A DNA stretch of 50,980 nt from Planctomycetota bacterium (GTDB lineage Bacteria > Planctomycetota > Phycisphaerae > WQYP01): positions 1-50,980 of the forward strand of contig JAJZGD010000003.1 in assembly GCA_021804985.1 (NCBI GenBank), in the 5' to 3' direction. Within the stretch, counting starts at the first letter, position 1. The number at the start of each line of letters is the position of its first letter. This document shows positions 25,490-37,411 of this stretch, piece after piece. The position numbers and the translations under genes were made by a program. The notes under the pieces were generated by a model. The model had not been told where the DNA came from, did not search any database, and saw only the letters and a list, made by a program, of their open reading frames with translations.

Positions 25490-25592
25490 GAGCCTGTCCG
25501 AGTAATCGCCGAGATTGCGATGGGCCTGCGATGGCCCGTACGCGCGGCGGAAGATCGAGCCGACTTTGAACAATGAGTCTGCGAGATGCGAT
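25490..25592. repeat. interspersed repeat family B, copy 2 (left border of the defence island)
   Basis: GAGCCTGTCCGAGTAATCGCCGAGATTGCGATGGGCCTGCGATGGCCC...GCGCGGCGGAAGATCGAGCCGACTTTGAA, homologous to 17008-17110. Confidence 0.7.
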
Positions 25593-25633
25593 CGGGTTCA
25601 TCGCGGCGGGCAACTGAGGCAGTGGAGATACCC

Positions 25634-28600
25634 ATGGCGCAGTCGGATATGACGTTTATCAGCAATGAGGCCGGCAGGACCTTGCGCGAACGCCTTGCCA
25701 CCTTGTTGGCGGCCGATACGCGCTTATTTGACTGCCTCGTGGGGTATTTCTACATCAGCGGCTTTCATAACCTTTACCCCAGCCTCGAAAACGTCGAGAA
25801 AATCCGCATCCTCGTCGGCCTCAGCACCGACGACACTGTCCGGAACCTGCTGCATGACGCCGCGCGGCCGTCGGATGAACCGTCCACCCTACGGTTCCAG
25901 TCCCATGCGGTGGTTGAGGAAAACATCCCTCACGCCATGCTCTGTGAACTTGAGAGGGCCGAATACACCGCTGAGGTCGAAACCGGCGTAACCAAATTTG
26001 TCCAGTGGATTCAATCCGGAAAGCTGGAAATCAGAGCGCATCCGTCCGAGAATTTGCACGCCAAAGTTTACATTATGACCTTCCACGATGGCGACAGGGA
26101 CGTCGGCCGTGTGATCACCGGCTCCAGCAATCTCACCCAATCCGGCCTGCAGGACAATCTGGAATTCAACGTCGAGCTTAAAAACCGCTCGGATTACGAC
26201 TTTGCCGCCGCTAAATTCAATGAACTTTGGGCGACCGCCGTGGAGGTGTCCAAACCCTGCGAAGCCGCCATCCTCCAGCAATCACCGTATGCGCAATTTA
26301 CCCCGTACGAACTTTACCTGAAATTCCTATACGAATATTTCCGCAGTGAACTTAACCGCCCCAAAGAGCTTGACGATCTTTATGTCCCCAACGGATTTAA
26401 AAAGCTGAAATATCAGGAAGAGGCCGTCCTGACCGCAAAAAAAATTCTGGAAGAATATGGCGGCGTATTTCTTTCCGACGTCGTCGGGCTTGGTAAAACC
26501 TACATGGCGGCCATGCTGGCCCAACAGCTCGACGGGCGCTCGCTGGTACTCGCGCCGCCGCACCTGATTGATGCCAACAACCCCGGCTCATGGCGCAACG
26601 TTTTTGGAGAGTTCCGCGTGCCCCATACCGATTTCGAATCGATTGGAACGCTGGATTCCCTTCTGCAGCGCGACACCGCCCGCTACAAAAACGTTTTTAT
26701 TGACGAATCGCATCGCTTCCGTAATGATGACAATCAAACCTACGCCAACCTCGCGCAAATCTGCCGGGGCAAGCGTATTATTCTGGTCTCGGCCACGCCG
26801 CTGAACAATACCCCCAATGACATACTCAGCCAGATCAAGCTGTTTCAGAATGGCGCCAACAGCACCATTCCCAACGTCCGCGACTTGGGGGCCTTTTTCA
26901 GCAAGCTTCAGGAAAATCTGCGCGGCCTCGACCGCCGCGAGCACCGTGACAAATATTTAAACGCCGTCCAGGAGAACGCCAGGACTACGCGCGAAAAAGT
27001 CCTTAAATACCTCATGATCCGCCGCACACGGGGAGAGATCCTGAAATACTACGGCGACGACCTTGCGTCGCAAGGCCTGAAGTTTCCCGCAGTCGCCGAT
27101 CCGCAGCCCCTTTTCTACAAACTCAACAAAGCCGAAAGCGGCGTTCTCGATTCCACCATCCGCCTGCTCACGCAGGATTTTAAATACGCCCGCTATAAGC
27201 AGCTGCTCTACTACCGCGGGCAGCGCGACCAAAAACAATCTCAGGGCCAGCAGAATCTTGCCAAGTTTATGAAAATTCTGATGGTCAAGCGGCTCGAAAG
27301 CAGCTTTCACGCCTTCCGCTCGACGTTAGGCCGCTTCATAGACACTTACAAGCGCGTTATCGCTGAATTCCACAAGGGTAACGTCTACATAAGCAAAGAA
27401 TACACCGATAAAATCTTCGACCTGTTGGAAAGCAACGATCACGACGCCATTCAACAACTGCTGGATGATGAAAAGGCTGAAAGGCTCAACGCCCGTGATT
27501 TCCTGGCGAATTTCATTACCGATCTTGAGAGCGATCTCGCCATCCTTGAAACCATCCATTCGGCTTGGAAAGATATTAAACGCGACCCCAAATGGGAAAC
27601 CTTCCGCGAAATCCTCCTGGCCGACAAACGGCTCAAAAATGCCAAGCTCATCATTTTCACTGAATCCAAAGAGACGGCCGAATACCTCGGCGCAAAAATC
27701 GCTGCCGAGGTTGATAAAAAAGTAATTGTTTCCAGCGGCGAATCCGATGAGGCCACCTACCGGCAGGTCACCGATAATTTTGACGACCGGGCCCTCCATC
27801 GCAAGGATGATTACCGCATCCTCGTTGCTACGGAAGTGCTTTCTGAGGGCGTCAACCTCCACCGCTCCAATATTGTGATTAACTACGACATTCCGTGGAA
27901 CCCCACCCGCCTGGTCCAGCGCGTGGGCCGGGTGAACCGCGTGGGCACCAAATTTGAAATCATTCACACCTATAACTTTTTCCCGACGGATGAAGGCAAC
28001 GACCTGATCAAACTCAAGGAAGCCGCCGAGGCCAAAATTCACGCCTTTATCGAGATGCTCGGTACCGATGCCCGCCTGCTTACCGATGGGGAAGAAATTA
28101 AATCACATGATTTGTTTTCCCAGCTGAATTCCAAAGCCGCCATCACGGGCGAAGATGAACAGCAGGAAACAGAACTTAAATATCTCACCGAAATCCGCGA
28201 AGTCCGCGATAAACAGCCCGACCTTTTCTCCCGCATCAAGCGGCTGCCGAAAAAAGCCCGCTCCACACGAGCCTGGCCCGCGCAAAAGGAAATCAGGCGC
28301 GAATTCGCATGCCCATCACTGGTGACTTACTTCCGCCAGGGGCGGCTGGATAAATTTTTCATTGCCGCTCCCCATGGCGGCCCCCAGGAGTTGGACTTCA
28401 TGGTCGCGGTCAAGCTCCTCCAGCCCGCGGATCCGGCGGAAAAACCGCTGCCGATTGCAGAAGGGTTTTACCATCTGCTGGATTTAAACCGCTCCGCTTT
28501 CCTGGCCGCCACAAGTGAGTCTGCCGCCGCCACCGGAAGGCCCGGCGGCGGTTCCCACGCCGTCTATATTCTCCGGCGGCTGGCCGCCCGGGAATTTCGC

Positions 28601-28861
28601 GGTTATCACGGCTTCACCGAGGAAGATGAGGCGTTCACCCAACAGGTCGCCCAATCATTCGCGGATGGCGCAATCCCAAAAATCACCGCGAAGAAAATTG
28701 CCCAATTACTGAAAAAAGAATCCGACCCGCTCAAAGTACTCAGCATTCTGCGCCGCGAAATTCCTACCTCGCTGCTTTCACCCACCCAATCCGCCCAGGC
28801 CGCCCGCGCCGCAAGCCCGCGTGAGGTGATTCTCTCTTCCATGCTGCTGGAGGCACCATGA
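25634..28861 (+). CDS. PLD-family (HKD) nuclease domain fused to an SNF2-family helicase
   Basis: The N-terminus has a single HKD motif, HAKVYIM...[10 protein letters not shown]. The SNF2 core shows GLGKT (motif I), DESHRFRN (II) and VSATPLNN (III). The C-lobe reads [14 protein letters not shown]...[23 protein letters not shown]. The start is taken at the ATG at 25634 ([12 protein letters not shown]); the ORF opens at 25586. Confidence 0.9.
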   Translation: [1075 protein letters not shown]

Positions 28862-28864
28862 ATC
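28814..28864 (+). repeat. 51-bp direct repeat, left copy (helicase 3' end / ATGA junction)
   Basis: AGCCCGCGTGAGGTGATTCTCTCTTCCATGCTGC[T]GGAGGCACCATGAATC. The same 51-mer with one mismatch is at 30266-30316, an offset of 1452 bp. Confidence 0.9.
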
Positions 28865-29049
28865 ACGATCAGTCCGGGCCAATCGCAAAGAAAACCCTCA
28901 CGCGAAAATTCGACGCGGGCCGATTTCTGGAATTTGTCGGCAAGCGGCTCAACACGGTGGGGCAAGCCAAGGCATACGCTCGCAATAGCCAATACGTCAA
29001 AAGCATACTTAGTGTTGCCGATAAAGGTCGTGGAAGGGGGGCGGCATGA
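28858..29049 (+). pseudogene. 63-codon remnant of a diverged methyltransferase N-terminus
   Basis: MNHDQSGPIAKKTLTRKFDAGRFLEFVGKRLN...NSQYVKSIL aligns with the MTase N-terminus MNRDQARNLVRETLTQKFDKGRFTALVGNLLN...NNQYVKDAF. Homology stops near 29010. There are ATGA overlaps at both ends, with the helicase stop and with the yhcG-like start. Confidence 0.65.
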
Positions 29050-30209
29050 TCAGAAGGCGTGACTCGCTGGCCGGGCCTAAGCCCAAAATCGCCGGCTACG
29101 AGGCGTTTCTGGCCGGCGTTACCGGCCTGCTCGAATCAGCCCGGCGCGGTGCCGCCCGGGCTGTTAATTCCCTCATCACCGCAACTTACTGGGAAATCGG
29201 CCGCCGCATGGTGCAATTGGAACAAGGTGGAGAATCGCGGGCCGATTATGGCGAATACCTCATGGACCGCTTATCCGCCGATCTTTCTGTGCGCTACGGT
29301 CGAGGCTTCTCCCGCCGGGCGGTCTATCAGATGCGGGCGTTCTATCTGGCATATCCGGCAATTGTGCAGACACCCTCTGCACAATTCGTCGCAACTGCCC
29401 AACTGCCTCCGGAGGTCAATCCGCTGATTGTGCAATCACCGATTGCACAATTGCCATCGCCGCGGTTCCCGCTGACCTGGACCCACTATGTGCGGATGCT
29501 GGCGGTCAAAAATGAATCCGCTCGAAACTTCTATGAAACCGAGGCCCTCCGATGCGGATGGTCCATCCGCCAGCTGGATCGCCAGATTGATTCGCTCTAT
29601 TACGAACGCACGGCCTTGTCAAAAAATAAGGCCGCCATGCTTGCCAAAGGCCGAAAAAAAAGTCCCGGCGACGCCGTTACCCCCGAAGAAGAAATCAAAG
29701 ACCCCTTCGTTCTGGAATTTCTACAACTCAAAGATGAATACTCCGAAACCCAATTGGAAGAGGCGCTCATCCGCCATTTGGAATCGTTCCTTCTGGAACC
29801 TGGCGATGATTTCGCCTTCCTTGGCCGGCAAAAGCGATTGCGGATCGACGACCAATGGTTCCGCGTCGATCTGTTATTTTTCCACCGCCGGCTTAAATTC
29901 CTGATCGTCATCGATCTCAAGACGGGAAAATTTACTCATGCCGATGCCGGCCAAATGCACCTGTATCTCAATTATGCCTCTGAACATTGGGTCCGGCCGG
30001 GAGAAAATCCGCCTGTGGGCCTGATTCTCTGCGCTCAGAAAGACGCGGCCATTGTTCATTATGCGCTGGAGAATTTGCCCAACAAAGTTCTTGCGGCGGA
30101 GTATAAAATGAAATTGCCCGATGAAGCCACCCTCGCCAATGAAATGGATCGCACGCGCAGGGCGCTGGAAATCAGATCAGTGCCCAGGCGCGGGGGCACG
30201 AAGAAATGA
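29046..30209 (+). CDS. YhcG-like PD-(D/E)xK nuclease domain protein (DUF1016 family)
   Basis: YWEIGRRMV, WTHYVRML, FYETEALRCGWSIRQLDRQI, DPFVLEFL and FLGRQKRLRIDDQWFRVDLLFFHRRLKFLIVIDLKTGKFTHADAGQMHLYLNY form the characteristic DUF1016 N-domain plus restriction-endonuclease-like core (D...DLK). Confidence 0.85.
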   Translation: MIRRRDSLAGPKPKIAGYEAFLAGVTGLLESARRGAARAVNSLITATYWEIGRRMVQLEQGGESRADYGEYLMDRLSADLSVRYGRGFSRRAVYQMRAFYLAYPAIVQTPSAQFVATAQLPPEVNPLIVQSPIAQLPSPRFPLTWTHYVRMLAVKNESARNFYETEALRCGWSIRQLDRQIDSLYYERTALSKNKAAMLAKGRKKSPGDAVTPEEEIKDPFVLEFLQLKDEYSETQLEEALIRHLESFLLEPGDDFAFLGRQKRLRIDDQWFRVDLLFFHRRLKFLIVIDLKTGKFTHADAGQMHLYLNYASEHWVRPGENPPVGLILCAQKDAAIVHYALENLPNKVLAAEYKMKLPDEATLANEMDRTRRALEIRSVPRRGGTKK

Positions 30210-30250
30210 GTACACCCCAAAGCATTATGCTCTATGCTGCAATCATGCGT

Positions 30251-30313
30251 GCCGCCCGTACAACCAGCCCGCGTGAGGTGATTCTCTCTTCCATGCTGCC
30301 GGAGGCACCATGA
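30251..30313 (+). pseudogene. 20-codon remnant of a helicase C-terminus
   Basis: [20 protein letters not shown] compares with the real helicase end [20 protein letters not shown]. Its TGA overlaps the MTase ATG exactly as at the left junction. Confidence 0.6.
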
Positions 30314-30316
30314 ATC
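30266..30316 (+). repeat. 51-bp direct repeat, right copy
   Basis: See 28814-28864. Confidence 0.9.
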
Positions 30317-33300
30317 GCGATCAGGCCCGCAACCTCGTCAGGGAAACCCTTACGCAGAAATTCGACAAGGGCAGGTTCACCGCCTTGGTGGGAAACCTGC
30401 TCAACCGCATCGATACGCAAAAAACGTTTTCCTGCAACAACCAATACGTCAAGGACGCCTTCAAGCCGCACGTGAACCGCTACGAGCGCATCGCAAAATA
30501 CACTGCGCCCGACCAACGCAAAATCGACATTCTGGTGGTGCACCTCACCGAAAACGCCAATCTCGGGCGCACCCGCACCGCATTGCGTAATTTCGTGGCG
30601 GATTATCTAAAAAACCGGGATCGCAAAGATGCGGCCCTGGTGGCATTTGTTTCTCCATCCGACTCGGCCTGGCGCTTCTCCTACGTCAAAATGGAATACG
30701 CCACCGTTGAAACATCATCGGGCGACGTTGCCACAGAAGCCCGCCTCACGCCCGCCCGCAGATTTTCCTACCTCGTTGGCCCCGGAGAAAGTTGCCATAC
30801 GGCGCAGACTCGCTTCGTATCGCTTCTGCAGGACACCACCAACAACCCAACGCTGACGGATATAGAAGCAGCCTTCAGCGTTGAGGCCGTCACCAGGGAA
30901 TTCTTCGCGCGCTACAAGGAACTTTTCCTTGCGGTAAAAGATGAACTCGACAGAATCGCCGCGGCCGAGAAGGCCATCCAGGGCGAATTCAGCCAACGCA
31001 AACTGAGCACCGCCGATTTTGCCAAAAAGCTCCTGGGCCAGATCGTGTTCCTATATTTCCTTCAAAAAAAAGGCTGGCTCGGCGTGGCAAAAGACGGTGC
31101 CTGGGGCAACGGCCCGCATAATTTTCTCCGTAAACTCGCCAACCGCGAATTCGTTAAATATGGCAATCTTTTCAACGATATCCTCGAACCACTCTTTTAC
31201 GATACCCTCGCCACCGACCGTGGCCATGAGGCGCTGTGTAAAAAGTTTAACTGCCGCATTCCCTTCCTCAACGGCGGCCTGTTCGAACCGCTGGGTGGCT
31301 ACGATTGGCGTAACACCGAAATCCTGCTGCCCAATGAATTGTTCACGAATACTCAACCGGTGGAAGAAGGCATCATCGGCACCGGTATTCTGGATGTATT
31401 CGACCGCTACAACTTCACCGTTAATGAAGCCGAGCCGCTGGAAAAGGAAGTCGCGATCGACCCCGAAATGCTGGGCAAGGTTTTTGAAAACCTGCTGGAA
31501 GTAAAGGAACGCAAATCCAAAGGTTCATTCTATACCCCGCGTGAAATTGTGCATTACATGTGCCAGGAAAGCCTGATTAACTATCTCGACACAGCAATCA
31601 ACGGCAATGGTAATGGTGACACAGGCATTCCTGCCTGTAAATTATCCCAGTGTGACACAGGCATTCCTGTCTGTGCCGGCAGTGATGCTGGTGCCCCAGG
31701 CATTCCTGTCTGTGCCCCACCAAAGGTACAGTGTGACACAGACATTCCTGTCTGTGCCGGCAGTGATGCTGGTGCCCCAGGCATTCCTGTCTGTGCCCCA
31801 CCAAAGGTACAGTGTGACACAGACATTCCTGTCTGTGCTGACGTTGATGTTGGCGTCCCAGGCATTCCTGCCTGTGCCTCGTCAAAAGCACAAGGTGACA
31901 CAGGCATTCCTGCCTGTGCCGGCAGTGGGAAAATTCACAAAACCACCCGCAATCTTCCCCATTGGACCAGAGAAGGCTCAGTCTATTGGACCACCTTCCG
32001 ACTCGCCGATTCCCTACCACAGGAAAAGCTCGATGCCTGGCGGGCGGAGCGGGAAATCTGGCTCAACCAACACCCTAAACCCTGGAGTGATGAGGATTGC
32101 AAAGAATACGACGCGATTTTCGACGAACGCCTGCAATCCTGGCTTGACGCCGGCTACGGTTCATGCGCCCTTATGCGGCCTGATGTCCGGCAAGTTGTGC
32201 AAGAGTGCCTGCTTCGCTTCGATGGCCAGCGGCTGCGGCTGCACGCCGCGGTCATCATGCCCAATCATATCCATTTGCTTCTCGAACCCCTTGTCGGCAA
32301 CGAATTGTCTGAACTCCTGAAGGGTATTAAAGGTGCAAGCGCCCGCAAAGCCAACCAAGCCTTGGGTAATACCGGGACCGCCTTTTGGATGGACGAATCT
32401 TACGACCACATTGTTCGCAGTGAGCGGCAGCGGCAACACCTTGTCCGCTACATGATGGAAAATCCCATCAAAGCAAATCTGCCAGCCGACCAATTTTGGC
32501 TTTACCAGTGTGACGGTGACACAGGCATTCCTGTCTGTGCCCCACCACAAACACAGACAAGAATGTCTGTGCCACGCTGTGATATCGAAACCCTTGTTCA
32601 CTCCGGCGACCAGGCGGCCCATTACGAAACCGCCCGCGTTGGAGGCACTACAAGTTACAGGGCTGAACTGCCGCCAGGCATCGAAAACAACGCGCGATCT
32701 CTGGATGAAGCGCTTGCCTCCATCACCGTTTGCGACCCCGCCATCGGTTCCGGCGCCTTTCCCGTCGGGATGATGCACGAAATTGTCCGTGCCCGCTCCG
32801 CCCTGACACCCTATTTCAACGATGTGGCCGAGCGCACCGCCTACCATTTCAAACGCCACGCCATTCAAAACTGCCTCTACGGCGTGGACATCGACCCCGG
32901 CGCGGTGGAGATCGCCAAGTTGCGGCTCTGGCTTTCGCTGGTGGTGGATGAAGAGGATGTCCAGCAGATCAAGCCGCTGCCGAACCTGGATTACAAAGTG
33001 GTGGTGGGCAATTCGCTGCTGGGCGTGGAAAAGACGCTGTTCAACCAAGAATTGTTCACCCGTCTGGAGGAGATCAAGCCAAAATATTTCGATGAAACAA
33101 ACAGCGATAAAAAGCACGAATACAGGAAGGAGATCAACCAACTTATCCAAGATCTCACCGACGGCCAAACGGCCTTCGATTTTGAGATTTATTTCTCGGA
33201 AGTGTTTCACCGTAACGGCGGGTTTGACGTGGTGATCGGCAACCCACCGTATTTGTTCGCAAGAAACAGTAAGGAAAAGGGGATTACCGCAGCGGACAAA

Positions 33301-34431
33301 AAAATCTACAACGGCACCTACATGCTCGCCGAATACCAGATAAACCTTTACCCGCTCTTCATAGAAAGAGGCACCGGGATACTAAGGGAAAGCGGCAGTT
33401 TCGCCTTCATCACGCCCAACAACTGGCTCACGATCAACACAAATGGCCTGCTGAGAAACTTTGTCCTGAACCGGTCGGAAATCACAATCGTCAATTTCTA
33501 CGCCCGCATGTTCGCCGGCGCGGATGTCGACAACTCAATAATCATCTATAAAAAATCCGCGGGGAAACGACGCATAAAACTCTTCGAGTACAGGAGCGGC
33601 CTGGAGCTCGTCAAGGAGGCTGATTGCGACTTCTTCCTGCAGCAACGCGACTCGATCATCAATATCGACGCACAGAAGGGTGGCCACGTTGCCGCATTAA
33701 TGCAAAAAATTGAATCCCGCGCCGACAGGCTCAGGGACGTTGCGGATGCCAGGGTCGGGCTTAAGGCATACCAGACCGGAAAGGGAAGACCACCACAGGA
33801 GAAGAAGGCCAAGGACGGGCGAATTTTCCACTCGGGCGACCAAATCGACGAAACCTACATCAAATACTTGGATGGCAGGGACGTGAGCCGGTACAGGCTG
33901 GGATGGGGAGGCGAATACCTCAAGTACGGCCGTCACCTTGCGGAACCGCGCACACAATTCAGGCTATTTTCCTCGAAGCGTATCCTCGTGCGCCAGATTC
34001 CGGCAAATCCGCCGTATTGTATCCACGCCTGCATCGCCGAGGAAACACTCCTCAATGACCTCAACTCAATGAACATCATCAATTCCCGCGAACCGGCAGA
34101 GCTTGTTCTGGGCATTTTGAACGCGCGGCTCACCTCGTTCTGGTTCGTCCACAGATTCGGCAAAATGCAGCGGCGAACGTTCCCGCAATTCAAAGTGAAC
34201 GAGCTCGCAGAATTTCCACTCCCCCGGGGGAGGGAGCGGCGGCAGGCCGAAATAATCCGCCTGGTTGGCGAGGCCATGTCGGCCAGGCGCAGCGACCCAG
34301 GGGCGGACATCTGTGCCATTGACCGGGAGATCGACCGAATCGTTTATAGCCTTTACGGCCTGACTCCCGAGGAGATCGCCATCGTCGAAGGGACAACCGA
34401 GGCGTCTGGCCGCGAGAAAAAAAAGAGCTAG
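30310..34431 (+). CDS. Eco57I-type (gamma-class) N6-adenine DNA methyltransferase with a TaqI_C-like target-recognition domain, carrying an in-frame REP/RAYT insertion
   Basis: Motif X GSFYTPREIVHYM (FYTP at 31528-31539), motif I CDPAIGSGAFP (from 32734), YGVDIDPGAVEIAKLRLWLSL, and motif IV GNPPY (33241-33252). The C-terminal TRD ends in the typical SLYGLTPEEIAIVE. FYTP and motif I are separated by ~398 aa, of which ~322 aa is the REP/RAYT segment. It is a single uninterrupted 1373-codon ORF. Confidence 0.9.
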   Translation: MNRDQARNLVRETLTQKFDKGRFTALVGNLLNRIDTQKTFSCNNQYVKDAFKPHVNRYERIAKYTAPDQRKIDILVVHLTENANLGRTRTALRNFVADYLKNRDRKDAALVAFVSPSDSAWRFSYVKMEYATVETSSGDVATEARLTPARRFSYLVGPGESCHTAQTRFVSLLQDTTNNPTLTDIEAAFSVEAVTREFFARYKELFLAVKDELDRIAAAEKAIQGEFSQRKLSTADFAKKLLGQIVFLYFLQKKGWLGVAKDGAWGNGPHNFLRKLANREFVKYGNLFNDILEPLFYDTLATDRGHEALCKKFNCRIPFLNGGLFEPLGGYDWRNTEILLPNELFTNTQPVEEGIIGTGILDVFDRYNFTVNEAEPLEKEVAIDPEMLGKVFENLLEVKERKSKGSFYTPREIVHYMCQESLINYLDTAINGNGNGDTGIPACKLSQCDTGIPVCAGSDAGAPGIPVCAPPKVQCDTDIPVCAGSDAGAPGIPVCAPPKVQCDTDIPVCADVDVGVPGIPACASSKAQGDTGIPACAGSGKIHKTTRNLPHWTREGSVYWTTFRLADSLPQEKLDAWRAEREIWLNQHPKPWSDEDCKEYDAIFDERLQSWLDAGYGSCALMRPDVRQVVQECLLRFDGQRLRLHAAVIMPNHIHLLLEPLVGNELSELLKGIKGASARKANQALGNTGTAFWMDESYDHIVRSERQRQHLVRYMMENPIKANLPADQFWLYQCDGDTGIPVCAPPQTQTRMSVPRCDIETLVHSGDQAAHYETARVGGTTSYRAELPPGIENNARSLDEALASITVCDPAIGSGAFPVGMMHEIVRARSALTPYFNDVAERTAYHFKRHAIQNCLYGVDIDPGAVEIAKLRLWLSLVVDEEDVQQIKPLPNLDYKVVVGNSLLGVEKTLFNQELFTRLEEIKPKYFDETNSDKKHEYRKEINQLIQDLTDGQTAFDFEIYFSEVFHRNGGFDVVIGNPPYLFARNSKEKGITAADKKIYNGTYMLAEYQINLYPLFIERGTGILRESGSFAFITPNNWLTINTNGLLRNFVLNRSEITIVNFYARMFAGADVDNSIIIYKKSAGKRRIKLFEYRSGLELVKEADCDFFLQQRDSIINIDAQKGGHVAALMQKIESRADRLRDVADARVGLKAYQTGKGRPPQEKKAKDGRIFHSGDQIDETYIKYLDGRDVSRYRLGWGGEYLKYGRHLAEPRTQFRLFSSKRILVRQIPANPPYCIHACIAEETLLNDLNSMNIINSREPAELVLGILNARLTSFWFVHRFGKMQRRTFPQFKVNELAEFPLPRGRERRQAEIIRLVGEAMSARRSDPGADICAIDREIDRIVYSLYGLTPEEIAIVEGTTEASGREKKKS
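31621..31918 (+). repeat. array of 8 REP hairpins (consensus CACAGGCA-TTCC-TGCCTGTG) including an 81-bp tandem repeat
   Basis: Hairpins at 31621-38, 31656-75, 31697-712, 31737-56, 31778-93, 31818-37, 31859-74 and 31899-918. The stem variants CACAGACA/TGTCTGTG keep pairing. Units starting at 31650, 31731 and 31812 have an exact 81-bp (27-codon) period. Confidence 0.85.
32529..32580 (+). repeat. REP doublet downstream of the RAYT core (one direct, one inverted)
   Basis: 32529-48 is CACAGGCA-TTCC-TGTCTGTG. 32561-80 is CACAGACA-AGAA-TGTCTGTG, whose loop is the reverse-orientation version (complement TTCT). Confidence 0.8.
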
Positions 34432-34441
34432 GAATTGACCA

Positions 34442-34654
34442 ATGAAAATCAGCCGTGTGCAGATTAAAAACTTCCGTAACTTCGCCAGCCTTGATGTGGC
34501 CCTTGGCGAACACGCCGTTATCGTCGGCGAAAACAAGGTCGGAAAATCGAATTTCCTATTCGCACTGCGATTGATTCTCGACCCGTCGCTGCCAGATACG
34601 GCAAGAAAACTTCGTGACGAAGACTTCCGGCCTTGGGAAAGGGGCGACCGGTGA
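34442..34654 (+). pseudogene. N-terminal stub (70 codons) of an OLD-family / AAA_15 ATPase (GajA/OLD-like)
   Basis: MKISRVQIKNFRNFASLDVALGEHAVIVGENKVGKSNFLFALRLILDPSL is the canonical OLD/AAA_15 start with Walker A GxNxxGKS. The frame stops at codon 70, and no Walker B or TOPRIM region follows in any frame. Confidence 0.7.
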
Positions 34655-34707
34655 GCAGGTACACACGGCGTCTAACGCGCCCCGGCGCGCCACGCTCCAT
34701 CCTTACC

Positions 34708-36174
34708 ATGACCGCAGCGCAGGCACGCACGTTTTTCCTAAAGACAGAGAGCTACTGCAATTTTGACCTACCAGGGTACATCCAGTTCGGTTCCCTGTTG
34801 GAGGCCGTCGCCGAGCAGATGCGCGGTAAGGAGCTTCGCGCTATGTCCCTGAACCCTCGCGAGCACGAGGGCGTGAATTACACGGTGCAGTCGAACAAGG
34901 ACGGCCGATACGCGTGGCGGCCGCTACAGCTGATTCACCCCGCCCTCTACGTCTCGCTGGTGGACAAGATCACCACCCCAGAAAATTGGGGGGCGATAAC
35001 ACGCCGATTCATTGATTTCCAAAAATCATGCAAACTCAGATGCCTGGGCATCCCGCTGCAGTCCCGGGCGGGGGGCAAGGACAAGGCCGCCCTGATCGGC
35101 AGCTGGTGGCAAGAAATAGAGCAGAGATCGATCGAGCTCGCCATCGAATACGGCCATCTATTTCACGCAGACATCAAGGGTTGCTACGCCGCGATCTACA
35201 CGCATTCGATCGCATGGGCGCTACACGGCAAGAACGAGGCAAAAAGCGCCCGGCGCAATAAAGAACTCATCGGGAACGCCATCGATGCGCAAATCCAAGG
35301 CATGCGTCAGGGCCAGACCAACGGAATCCCCCAGGGGTCAGTATTGATGGATTTCATCGCTGAAATGGTTCTCGGCCACGCCGACCTCGATCTAACCACC
35401 CGCATTGGGGCCGCCGGAATTAGTGACTACCACATCCTGCGCTACCGCGACGACTACCGGGTGTTTACAAACAACCCCCGGGATGGCGAACAAATCCTTA
35501 AGCTGCTGACGGAAGTTCTCATCGGCCTGGGCATGCAGCTGAACACGGCCAAGACAGGGGGATCGTCGCAGGTCGTGAAAAGCTCCGTAAAGGCCGACAA
35601 GCGGTCATGGATCCGGGGGAAACAGTGGGACCGGAACCTTCAAAAGCACCTGCTCATAATCCACGCGCACGCTGAGGATTTCCCAAACTCCGGCAGCGTT
35701 GTTGTCGCCCTTGGGCGCTTCCACAAGAGAGTGTATGAGGAAAAGGCTTTCCAAAACGTCCGTGCCCTGATCAGCATCGTTGTTGACATCGCGTACGGCA
35801 GTCCGAGGGCATTTCCGGTGTGCGCGGCAATCATCAGCAAGCTACTAACCGCGATCAAGGAGAAGGCAGAACGGGAAGAGATCGTGGGGAATGCCCACAC
35901 CAAGATGTCACAGATGCCCAACACCGGCCACATTGAGTTGTGGCTCCAGCGAATCAGCTACGCGAGCGGTTTGGGCGTCGCCTACGGTGAACCGATATGC
36001 AAGCTCGTTGAGGGCGAGGCCACTGGCCTTTGGAACAGCGACTGGATCAAGGACGAGAACCTGAAGGCGGCACTCAACCCGTCCGGGATTGTTAGCAGGC
36101 CAAGGCTTCGCGCGGCCAAGCCTGTCATCGCACCGGAGGAGATAGCGGTCTTCCCGGAGGAACGGTACGAGTGA
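34708..36174 (+). CDS. stand-alone reverse transcriptase, Abi/UG (defence-associated) type with a helical C-terminal domain
   Basis: RT motifs: 1/2 KDGRYAWRPLQLIHPALYV; A FHADIKGCYAAIYTHSI; B NGIPQGSVLMDFIAEMVL; C ILRYRDDYRVF (YxDD); D/E GMQLNTAKT. About 200 aa of predicted helical C-terminus follow. The start is taken at the ATG at 34708 (MTAAQARTFF); the track ORF opens at a TTG at 34633. Confidence 0.85.
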   Translation: MTAAQARTFFLKTESYCNFDLPGYIQFGSLLEAVAEQMRGKELRAMSLNPREHEGVNYTVQSNKDGRYAWRPLQLIHPALYVSLVDKITTPENWGAITRRFIDFQKSCKLRCLGIPLQSRAGGKDKAALIGSWWQEIEQRSIELAIEYGHLFHADIKGCYAAIYTHSIAWALHGKNEAKSARRNKELIGNAIDAQIQGMRQGQTNGIPQGSVLMDFIAEMVLGHADLDLTTRIGAAGISDYHILRYRDDYRVFTNNPRDGEQILKLLTEVLIGLGMQLNTAKTGGSSQVVKSSVKADKRSWIRGKQWDRNLQKHLLIIHAHAEDFPNSGSVVVALGRFHKRVYEEKAFQNVRALISIVVDIAYGSPRAFPVCAAIISKLLTAIKEKAEREEIVGNAHTKMSQMPNTGHIELWLQRISYASGLGVAYGEPICKLVEGEATGLWNSDWIKDENLKAALNPSGIVSRPRLRAAKPVIAPEEIAVFPEERYE

Positions 36175-36445
36175 GCGGCCGGTGGCAAGCCCATACCGGT
36201 ACGCTAGGCCGAGGCGTCCCGCAGCCCCGCCGGGCCGGGTCGGTATGCGCAAGCCAAGGCCCCAGCAGCGCGGTGATCCAGGCCTTCGACGCCGTGCGTG
36301 AATTTCGCGATCCAGGCGTGGCCCCAACCGATGGCCTCCCTTCGCCGATGGGACGCGAACGCTTGCGCACCCTGCTACCTGAGTGGTAACTCGCAATAAT
36401 TTACGCCACCGGGCCAGTGGCCGATGCAGAGCCGCTTGGCTTGCC

Positions 36446-37159
36446 TCATTCGGCGTTCAGTTCATGCAGATTGATGCCAAGCGTTTCCAGTGCGCATTTG
36501 GCCGCCAATTGCTCCGCCAGCTTTTTGCTGTTTCCCCAGCGCGACTCAAACTGCCGCTCTCCAATGGCGACGTAAATTTGAAATGATTTATCATGATCCA
36601 ACCCGGTTTCCGCCTGCACGTGATAAACGGGTGTCGTACCAAATTCGCGTTGGGCATGCTGCTGCAGTATCGATTTGTAATTCTGATCATGCTGATTATT
36701 AATAATTTCCCGCAGGTGTTCATTCATCGCCGGCATGAGGAACTTGCGGATGGTTTTTAAATCGCCGCCGCTGTCGAGATACATCGCTCCCAAAATCGCT
36801 TCCAGCAATCCGGCCGCCACACTCACCGGCAAGCCGCCGGTCCGGTTCATGCCGGGGCCCACACGCACCAATGCCGTCAGGCCGATTTTATCGCTGATGC
36901 GGGCGCACGTTTTACGGCTGACGGCCGCGGCCTTCAGTATGGTCAGATCCCCCTCACGCCGATCGGGGAACAGGTTAAAAACATGCTCGCAGATCAACAG
37001 GCCAAGCACCGCATCGCCCAGAAATTCCAGCCGTTCATAATTATGCAGGCGATGGGCCGCGGCCGAGGAATGGGTCAGCGCGGCATCAAGAATGGTCGCA
37101 TCTTTAAAGCTATATCCAATGATGGCCTGGCAGTTCTTTAAACTTTCCACGTCAACCAT
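36446..37159 (-). CDS. rnc: ribonuclease III
   Basis: The signature NYERLEFLGDAVLGL and a C-terminal dsRBD (SKKLAEQLAAKCALETL). Confidence 0.95.
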   Translation of the reverse strand: MVDVESLKNCQAIIGYSFKDATILDAALTHSSAAAHRLHNYERLEFLGDAVLGLLICEHVFNLFPDRREGDLTILKAAAVSRKTCARISDKIGLTALVRVGPGMNRTGGLPVSVAAGLLEAILGAMYLDSGGDLKTIRKFLMPAMNEHLREIINNQHDQNYKSILQQHAQREFGTTPVYHVQAETGLDHDKSFQIYVAIGERQFESRWGNSKKLAEQLAAKCALETLGINLHELNAE

Positions 37160-37411
37160 GCGAATAGTTCCCCGGGTAAATAAAACATTTTGAACTCAGG
37201 TGCGTTGCAGCATTGATTTGACGCAGACCGCCCAGAGTGCCCGCAGGCAAGCAGGGCGATTGGCGTCATGAAGTCCCAATCAGCGTTTCATCCGTGCGGC
37301 AATCCTCTATGCCGATAAACCAATTCCGCCGGGTGATTAAATCCACAGCGAGAAACAACCGTTTGGGCTGCGCATCCGATTTGTTGCGAGCCAGCAATCC
37401 CGGCTGCATCA

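Follow-up and report, generated by a model that had tools for sequence, protein, structure and literature searches.

Abi-P2 has been placed by Mestre et al. in class 1 of the UG/Abi reverse transcriptases (RTs) as a stand-alone multi-domain protein (PMC9226505), and a Y(R/V)DD active site is the RT-motif criterion used for the class (PMC8632793). As a single gene, the coliphage version has been reported to provide resistance to T5 (PMC8632793, PMC9226505). Figiel et al. showed that the E. coli enzyme makes DNA without a template and that, when purified, it is free of nucleic acid and forms trimers; DNA synthesis is abolished by the substitution Y61F and not by Y46F (PMC9508834). In Abi-P2 and AbiK a helical lobe stands in for thumb and template and makes the trimer contacts, and Tyr282 of Abi-P2 corresponds to Tyr245 of AbiK (PMC9508834). 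Here, these enzymes are compared with the product of an RT gene in a stretch of 50,980 nucleotides (nt), the window, from a planctomycete (Planctomycetota bacterium, Phycisphaerae, WQYP01; assembly GCA_021804985.1, contig JAJZGD010000003.1, positions 1 to 50,980 of the forward strand). A preliminary description, made from the sequence alone, had placed the gene at 34708-36174 and proposed an orphan defence-type RT with no visible partner gene or retron-like RNA.

Assignment of the RT to the Abi-P2 family

Very probably, the gene encodes an intact Abi-P2-family polymerase of abortive infection (UG/Abi class 1) that is expressed by read-through and, by analogy with the enzyme studied, would carry out untemplated synthesis primed by a tyrosine. 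Judged by its sequence, the protein belongs to the family over its full length, though as a distant member. Among the PADLOC models, AbiP2 reached 639.5 bits (E 8.8e-193) over model positions 5-487 of 489, with UG14 (162.7 bits) and Drt6 (158.2 bits) as runners-up; UG14, Drt6, Drt4 and AbiK spanned 95-163 bits. A phmmer search of the PDB returned the Abi-P2 crystal structure 7R08 as best match (E 3.8e-85), covering residues 2-452 of the 488-amino acid (aa) form of the RT, and DRT6, Drt3b, UG15/DRT4 and AbiK followed far behind with matches to the RT core only. An AlphaFold (AF2) model built from a 27-sequence alignment (pLDDT 61, pTM 0.52) had six 7R08 chains as its top Foldseek matches (E 1e-22, TM score 0.52-0.55, alignment of 517 columns), with UG15/DRT4, DRT6, AbiK and AbiA next in order. 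In addition, tblastn against phage records identified the RTs of P2-EC30 and P2-EC58, which are 33.6% identical to the query across 99% of its length (E 2e-89).

The profile, the homology to the type protein, the helical C-terminal domain and the priming tyrosine that characterize Abi-P2 were all found, as were RT motifs with Y(R/V)DD, HADI, GIPQG and YRDD being invariant in the family alignment. The RT belongs to the same length class as Abi-P2 of P2-EC30 and P2-EC58, is collinear with it over 99%, and shares its two lobes (RT-like palm and fingers plus helical domain), its YRDD active site, the Tyr61-equivalent position and the single-gene organisation. In contrast to the coliphage enzyme, the window RT is chromosomal and stems from an uncultured environmental bacterium, outside the P2 hotspot between portal gene and gene A, and it is part of a large environmental clade whose members, 57-70% identical to it, occur in many phyla and often within type I restriction-modification (R-M) operons. 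More than 5000 homologues were recovered at E <= 1e-10, and among the matches listed more than 580 species genomes carry relatives of the RT.

AbiK of Lactococcus, DRT4/UG15 and DRT6 resemble the window RT as stand-alone RT-like enzymes with protein-primed, template-independent synthesis of single-stranded DNA (ssDNA) and a helical repeat domain, and they are its next-best structural matches and PADLOC models. However, similarity in sequence does not extend beyond the RT core (39-55 bits); moreover, the helical domains lack sequence homology, the priming residues differ, and AbiK is hexameric (PMC9508834). The preliminary description had recognized a single-gene defence RT of the Abi/UG kind, and the AbiP2 profile and the matches to 7R08, P2-EC30 and P2-EC58 bear this out. 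The RT is, however, no unplaced orphan, since PADLOC, phmmer, Foldseek and tblastn all identify a full-length Abi-P2 member. It belongs to an ordinary, well-populated defence family, and there is no longer reason to see in it an orphan RT of a new kind.

Domain structure, catalytic residues and priming

The RT motifs A, B and C and the LNTAKT motif named in the preliminary description were all located within the uninterrupted frame (Table 1). Conservation was determined for the RT together with 26 homologues of 57-68% identity, and the residues marked as invariant in Table 1 are identical in all 27 sequences. The catalytic residues, on whose integrity the earlier proposal depended, are thus kept; this conservation, that of the priming residue and the family membership were observed directly. 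Helices were predicted at 312-505 of the 513-aa open reading frame (ORF) and match the helical lobe of 7R08, in agreement with the C-terminal helical domain of ~200 aa noted before. Pfam returned RVT_1 alone (E 1.8e-10), and no maturase, X, HNH, endonuclease or other extra domain was detected with Pfam and the profile models, as had been proposed.

In the pairwise alignment, Tyr61 of 7R08 falls on the tyrosine of LPGYIQF, which is numbered Tyr49 in the 513-aa ORF, Tyr43 in the 507-aa form and Tyr24 in the 488-aa form. The position of Tyr46 is occupied by Phe in the window RT, consistent with Abi-P2 Y46F staying active. Every feature known to be required for protein-primed synthesis without a template is thus kept in the sequence of the window RT.

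Table 1. Features of the Abi-P2-like RT gene and of its surroundings in the window (positions are those of the window).
Feature	Position	Strand	Evidence or remark
Abi-P2 family polymerase gene (reverse-transcriptase-like)	34651..36174	+	Probable GTG start, 507 aa; profile, structure, homologue N-termini
Putative priming Tyr codon, motif LPGYIQF	34777..34779	+	Tyr invariant; aligned with 7R08 Tyr61
RT motif A HADIKGCY, catalytic Asp180 (513-aa numbering)	35164..35187	+	H178 and D180 invariant in alignment
IYTHSIAW box after motif A	35194-35217	+	IYTHSI invariant in 27-sequence alignment
RT motif B GQTNGIPQGS	35311..35340	+	GQTNGIPQG invariant in alignment
RT motif C YRDDY, catalytic Asp pair	35443..35457	+	LRYRDDYR invariant; aligned to 7R08 Y282-R-D-D
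LNTAKT motif	35539-35556	+	
C-terminal all-helical domain, ~200 aa	35566..36171	+	Predicted helices; alignment to 7R08 helical lobe
Spacer from RT stop to convergent rnc gene, 271 nt	36175..36445	.	No structured-RNA signal
Junction and short RT leader	34631..34650	+	~20 nt of non-gajA sequence, contains GGGAAAGGGG
gajA (Gabija ATPase) 5' remnant, 70 codons	34442..34654	+	PADLOC GajA PDLC00070, E 1.9e-31, positions 1-62 of 596
R-M-like system, co-oriented	25586..34431	+	Context, not a conserved partner
PLD-SNF2 helicase	25586-28861	+	
orf63	28858-29049	+	
DUF1016/YhcG nuclease	29046-30209	+	
Eco57I/TaqI_C type IIG-like methyltransferase	30310-34431	+	

By analogy, the enzymology and the defence outcome would be those of the family. 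Like E. coli Abi-P2, the RT would assemble into trimers (or hexamers), join the first nucleotide to its own tyrosine (34777-34779), and then extend ssDNA of random sequence without template or RNA, and phage growth would be halted through a response of the abortive-infection type. For the step from ssDNA to arrest, the best current model is that of the related DRT4, in which a phage DNA-binding protein stabilises the ssDNA and renders it toxic. As Abi-P2 synthesizes from a tyrosine primer without a template, the lack of a partner gene or RNA would be normal for this RT. The choice between untemplated synthesis and templating by a non-coding RNA (ncRNA), left open before, is largely settled by the membership in Abi-P2 and the conserved priming tyrosine.

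Start codon, upstream junction and expression

On the + strand, the frame is uninterrupted from TTG 34633 to the stop codon at 36172-36174, with GTG 34651 and ATG 34708 in frame. ATG 34708, which gives the 488-aa form, was the choice of the public annotation and of the preliminary description. Across 86 related loci, however, the residue aligned to this Met is frequently Leu (CTG, CTT or CTA), a conserved motif, (R/K)-S-(I/V)-L-x, stands before the aligned Leu/Met site, and the common start lies ~19-20 codons upstream of the ATG-34708 equivalent. The frequent replacement of the Met by Leu and the upstream starts of the relatives make GTG 34651 the likelier start; this codon is preceded by GGGAAAGGGG, a purine-rich run resembling a Shine-Dalgarno sequence. 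The RT thus probably begins at GTG 34651 and comprises 507 aa.

The ATPase stub seen earlier upstream of the RT proved to be specifically the beginning of GajA (Table 1), with a match to Pfam AAA_15 (E 1.5e-12) and the Walker A motif only. Its DNA homology to the 5' end of gajA at another locus (L088; 81%) stops at 34630, so that the last 8 codons of the stub are RT leader read in another frame. The stop codon of the stub (TGA, 34652-34654) overlaps the RT start as GTGA, and the RT start is separated from gajA sequence by only ~20 nt, too short a stretch to hold a promoter or ncRNA belonging to the RT itself. No GajA- or GajB-like sequence and no UvrD-like gene follows the stub. Although it starts exactly like GajA, including Walker A, it lacks ~90% of gajA as well as the whole of gajB, and it is a remnant rather than a Gabija system. 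A sigma-70-like promoter was not found in 33900-36700, where the consensus may not fit this uncultured bacterium, of which metagenome assemblies are the sole source, nor a + strand terminator-like site between methylase and RT. From the absence of an own promoter and the GTGA overlap, the RT is probably transcribed by read-through from the gajA/methylase unit and expressed with translational coupling.

The stub was also considered as a recurrent partner of the RT and rejected, as no other RT locus has one and the cuts elsewhere differ. Public gajA stubs are cut at 63, 76, 83 and 115 aa by frameshift, insertion of an insertion sequence (IS) or other truncation: that of L089 results from an IS insertion, that of L088 is an 83-residue truncation, and those of L090-092 are due to a frameshift in an otherwise complete gajA-gajB. 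At the latter loci (L090-L092, 8001-12395), gajA is split into ORFs of 88 aa and 751 aa with a 4-nt overlap, and an identical split recurs in several samples, in 24 contigs or more, beside an island of Dcm-type methylase, Vsr and Mrr-helicase, representing a stable frameshift or a sequencing-independent feature. The stub of the window is pseudogene debris of defence-island turnover, not a partner.

Type I restriction-modification operons around the relatives

The preliminary description had pointed out that the RT is co-oriented, and possibly co-transcribed, with a methylase-based system, and that this is not a described pairing. To relate this to other members, 79 species-representative RT loci were searched over a range of 8 kb with hidden Markov models of Hsd subunits built from aligned seeds. 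At least one co-oriented Hsd subunit was present at 41 of the 79 loci, at least two at 35 and all three at 29. The end of hsdS lies no more than 160 nt from the RT start at 31 loci, often with a 1- or 4-nt overlap, and hsdR starts within 60 nt after the RT stop at eight. The order hsdM/S-RT-hsdR was seen at 32 of the 79 loci, and at 25 of 45 when at least 4 kb was available on both flanks; none of the Hsd-bearing loci had all subunits on the "wrong" side of the RT. Examples of hsdS-RT-hsdR among L007-L086 are L019 (1303-7817), L026, L034, L054 and L064. The order hsdM-hsdS-RT-hsdR also occurs in cultured bacteria, such as Geothrix alkalitolerans SG263 (L065), Thiohalocapsa marina DSM 19078 (L042) and Desulfamplus magnetovallimortis (L062). 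Pfam assigned Methylase_S, HsdM_N/N6_Mtase and HSDR_N/T1RH-like_C to the flanking genes.

An all-versus-all blastn comparison of the RT flanks of 82 loci revealed two shared blocks, one just upstream of the RT and one just past its stop. A conserved non-coding flank element was rejected as their explanation, since these blocks, 75-92% identical across phyla, proved to be coding (HsdS C-terminus and HsdR N-terminus); the upstream block reads ...TLAALRDTLLPKLISGELRV and represents the C-terminus of a type I specificity subunit. Both are absent from the window, where no HsdS or HsdR match or remnant flanks the RT even with filters off, and the arrangement with hsdS upstream and hsdR downstream is not that of the window. 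At L011, L022, L046 and L055 an hsdS 3' remnant of ~70-95 codons or less stands alone before the RT, which suggests that the RT cassette carries a piece of hsdS on moving, or as the operon decays. No description of Abi-P2 within hsd operons was found in the literature searched, which is not proof that none exists.

The environmental Abi-P2 clade is very widespread and strongly associated with type I R-M operons in fixed position and orientation. Members of the clade repeatedly occur together with methylase-based systems, and since they are so often embedded in type I operons, the methylase adjacency is not peculiar to the window. Of the earlier claims, the co-orientation with the methylase was upheld, whereas the specific pairing with this helicase and methylase is not conserved and a dead gajA lies between. 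Likewise, this helicase and methylase stand beside no related RT, whereas the link of the RT clade to R-M operons is recurrent.

Other settings are found as well: some homologues are isolated genes surrounded by housekeeping genes or insertion sequences, one relative lies between insertion sequences on a Paracoccus plasmid, a family member occupies the P2 hotspot between portal gene and gene A, and another relative adjoins a tRNA. At L009 (2690-5325), in a metagenome-assembled genome of Planctomycetota, 26 tRNA genes are packed into 2.6 kb, ~2.7 kb upstream of the RT homologue. On the Pediococcus damnosus plasmid pL21534-4 (L094, 5968-11214), an Abi-P2 homologue of 39% identity is located directly upstream of, and co-oriented with, a 1194-aa type IIG-like enzyme with TaqI_C domain, an order opposite to that in the window.

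Possible functional coupling of RT and restriction-modification

These arrangements may be taken to mean that the RT is wired to its neighbouring R-M-type system in a PrrC-like manner, being co-transcribed with it and silenced by it or triggered on its failure, e.g., by a phage anti-restriction protein, so as to form a second abortive line, while the chemistry would still be that of Abi-P2. We consider this unlikely. Functional coupling to R-M has been shown for PrrC in the EcoprrI type I operon, and the hsdS-hsdR gap is the position of prrC; an abortive-infection gene located between hsdS and hsdR and co-oriented with them is thus common to EcoprrI and about half of the RT relatives. PrrC, however, is related to the RT neither as a protein nor in its chemistry, type I genes are missing from the window itself, and no Abi-P2 is known to be functionally coupled in this way. 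The frequency, fixed order and fixed orientation of the type I subunits (41 of the 79 loci, with hsdS within 160 nt at 31) speak for coupling, as do the Pediococcus plasmids with the RT directly upstream of the TaqI_C enzyme and, in the window, the co-orientation with the Eco57I/TaqI_C methylase across a 10-nt gap and an overlap, with no promoter or terminator hit.

On the other hand, an R-M neighbour is missing from roughly half of the relatives, and some of them lie in the P2 hotspot or are surrounded by insertion sequences or housekeeping genes. The helicase and methylase of the window accompany no other RT, relatives of this system occur without an RT, and the dead gajA in between speaks for accretion and not design. 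In addition, other cargo is found between RT and hsdR (DUF3037, ORFs without assignment) and in one case a SieB-like gene upstream of the RT; the borders of the gap, 75-92% identical in DNA across phyla, could drive cassette exchange by recombination; and the literature classes Abi-P2 as stand-alone (PMC9226505). The other cargo in type I operons with the RT (L013, 7278-7829 and 11040-11909; L014, 3744-4541) comprises genes for a DUF3037 protein and for superinfection exclusion (SieB-like), besides ORFs of 265-275 aa that match no family. As other cargo genes occupy many of the type I-embedded loci, the hsdS-hsdR gap looks like a general docking site. Such a site, kept by the conserved hsdS and hsdR ends, is favoured by the other cargo in the gap and by the many free-standing RT copies.

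The defence island of the window

The RT is located at the 3' end of a defence island of 10.8 kb (~25.6-36.4 kb) consisting of an R-M-like system, the dead Gabija gene and Abi-P2, in which methylase and stub are separated by 10 nt and stub and RT overlap. The set of helicase, orf63, DUF1016 and methylase was found beside none of the 79 RT loci, and DUF1016 alone was found near five. Two metagenomic relatives of the methylase were available: one contig ends at the methylase, the other continues with genes on the opposite strand, and neither gajA nor RT was called after the methylase in either. An ancestral island with intact Gabija following the methylase was considered and rejected, as these two relatives, from one metagenome scan, show none. 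We infer that a mobile, self-sufficient RT landed at the 3' end of the island and replaced all but 62 codons of gajA.

Several further observations concern the R-M-like genes. An in-frame insertion at 31615-32580, inside the methylase gene, contains a REP-associated tyrosine transposase (RAYT/Y1_Tnp) domain at methylase aa 628-724 (~nt 32191-32481). A palindromic REP-like unit of 23 nt, ACACAGGCATTCCTGTCTGTGCC, occurs eight times upstream of this domain and twice downstream, ten copies in all. The repeats translate without stop into peptides of the CDTGIPVCA type. The methylase measures 1373 aa here and 1165 aa in a relative; in other assemblies of the same locus it has 1346 aa, the difference being exactly one 81-nt repeat period. 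The product of orf63 (28858-29049) shares 48% identity with residues 1-48 of the methylase (30310-30453). From this resemblance, insertion of the DUF1016/YhcG gene seems to have either duplicated the 5' end of the methylase gene or detached it; in a metagenomic relative that position is taken by a different gene, of 197 aa.

In such surroundings the RT might be a stranded, unexpressed passenger in decay and the next pseudogene of an eroding island, which we regard as quite improbable. The missing promoter-like site and the position behind a pseudogene stub would fit decay, as would the scars of the island, namely the dead gajA, the duplicated methylase 5' end and the methylase interrupted by the REP/RAYT element. 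The RT itself, however, is a full-length ORF that keeps every family-invariant residue and scores 639.5 bits over the whole model, its Shine-Dalgarno-like leader and coupled GTGA start are kept, and its sequence is identical in independent assemblies.

Search for an RNA partner and comparison with other RT classes

An Rfam scan over 33800-37200 gave no match at E <= 1, and in ten homologue loci tRNAs alone reached the gathering threshold. Compared with shuffled controls, the fold z-scores were -1.40 for the 279 nt upstream and +0.46 for the 271 nt downstream, neither being significant. The flanks contain no inverted repeats suited to msr/msd and only short, imperfect ones. Thus, Rfam, folding and the inverted-repeat search all came up empty, in line with the lack of a retron-like RNA proposed before. 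An ORF of 72 codons at 36171-36389, which overlaps the RT stop, was considered as a conserved small partner and rejected; it has no match in Pfam, PADLOC or, by tblastn, in 85 other loci, is not similar to the 81-aa ORF of the closest relative (L087), and is treated as spurious in GC-rich DNA.

The other RT classes were rejected as well. The retron RT model scored 15.9 bits against a cut-off of 235, with no Rfam match or suitable inverted repeats. Similarly, the group II intron model TIGR04416 reached 50 bits against a cut-off of 300 and matched the RT core only, and neither intron RNA nor maturase domain was found. For DRT2, the Drt2 model gave 15.9 bits against a cut-off of 390 and the flanks are unstructured and not conserved; for DRT9, whose structures were only weak Foldseek matches (TM ~0.22), the same holds for the flanks. 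The Drt5 model also remained far below its curated cut-off. With profiles this far under their cut-offs and no corresponding RNA structures nearby, the earlier view that the gene is neither a retron nor a group II intron RT is maintained.

The neighbouring coding sequences come within 11 nt of the RT upstream and within 2 nt downstream in several type I operons, which leaves no space there for a flanking ncRNA and speaks further against one in this clade. That the RT copies an adjacent ncRNA which we missed, as retrons, DRT2 and DRT9 do, is therefore highly improbable, even though some single-gene DRTs require a flanking ncRNA and the 271-nt downstream spacer has no assigned function: Rfam is empty and the flanks fold no better than shuffles, gajA coding sequence fills the upstream flank to 20 nt before the RT start, the flanks of the window are conserved with no relative while the blocks shared elsewhere are coding ends of hsdS and hsdR, the retron, DRT2 and group II models gave 16-50 bits against cut-offs of 235-390, and Abi-P2 is active in vitro without RNA (PMC9508834).

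Implications for the Abi-P2 family

Some points weigh against an intact, expressed Abi-P2 polymerase with untemplated synthesis. The RT is ~34% identical to the biochemically studied Abi-P2 type member, from which its activity is extrapolated, and confidence in the AF2 model is moderate (pLDDT 61). Expression of the RT is uncertain, as no site resembling a promoter was detected and a pseudogene precedes it, and an RNA element overlapping coding sequence could escape the tests applied.

For the window, the result is mainly a clean annotation, and the wider interest lies in the pattern of R-M embedding of the clade. Polymerases of the Abi-P2 type may have been built into R-M operons as a guard, with untemplated synthesis backing up a restriction that has been defeated; the R-M complex would then restrain the polymerase or report its own inhibition. 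By analogy this is conceivable, although we think it rather unlikely. If the R-M link is functional, it would offer a testable handle on the trigger of Abi-P2 and on how untemplated synthesis stops a phage. If it reflects a recombination hotspot only, it would still explain how the RT moves between phyla.

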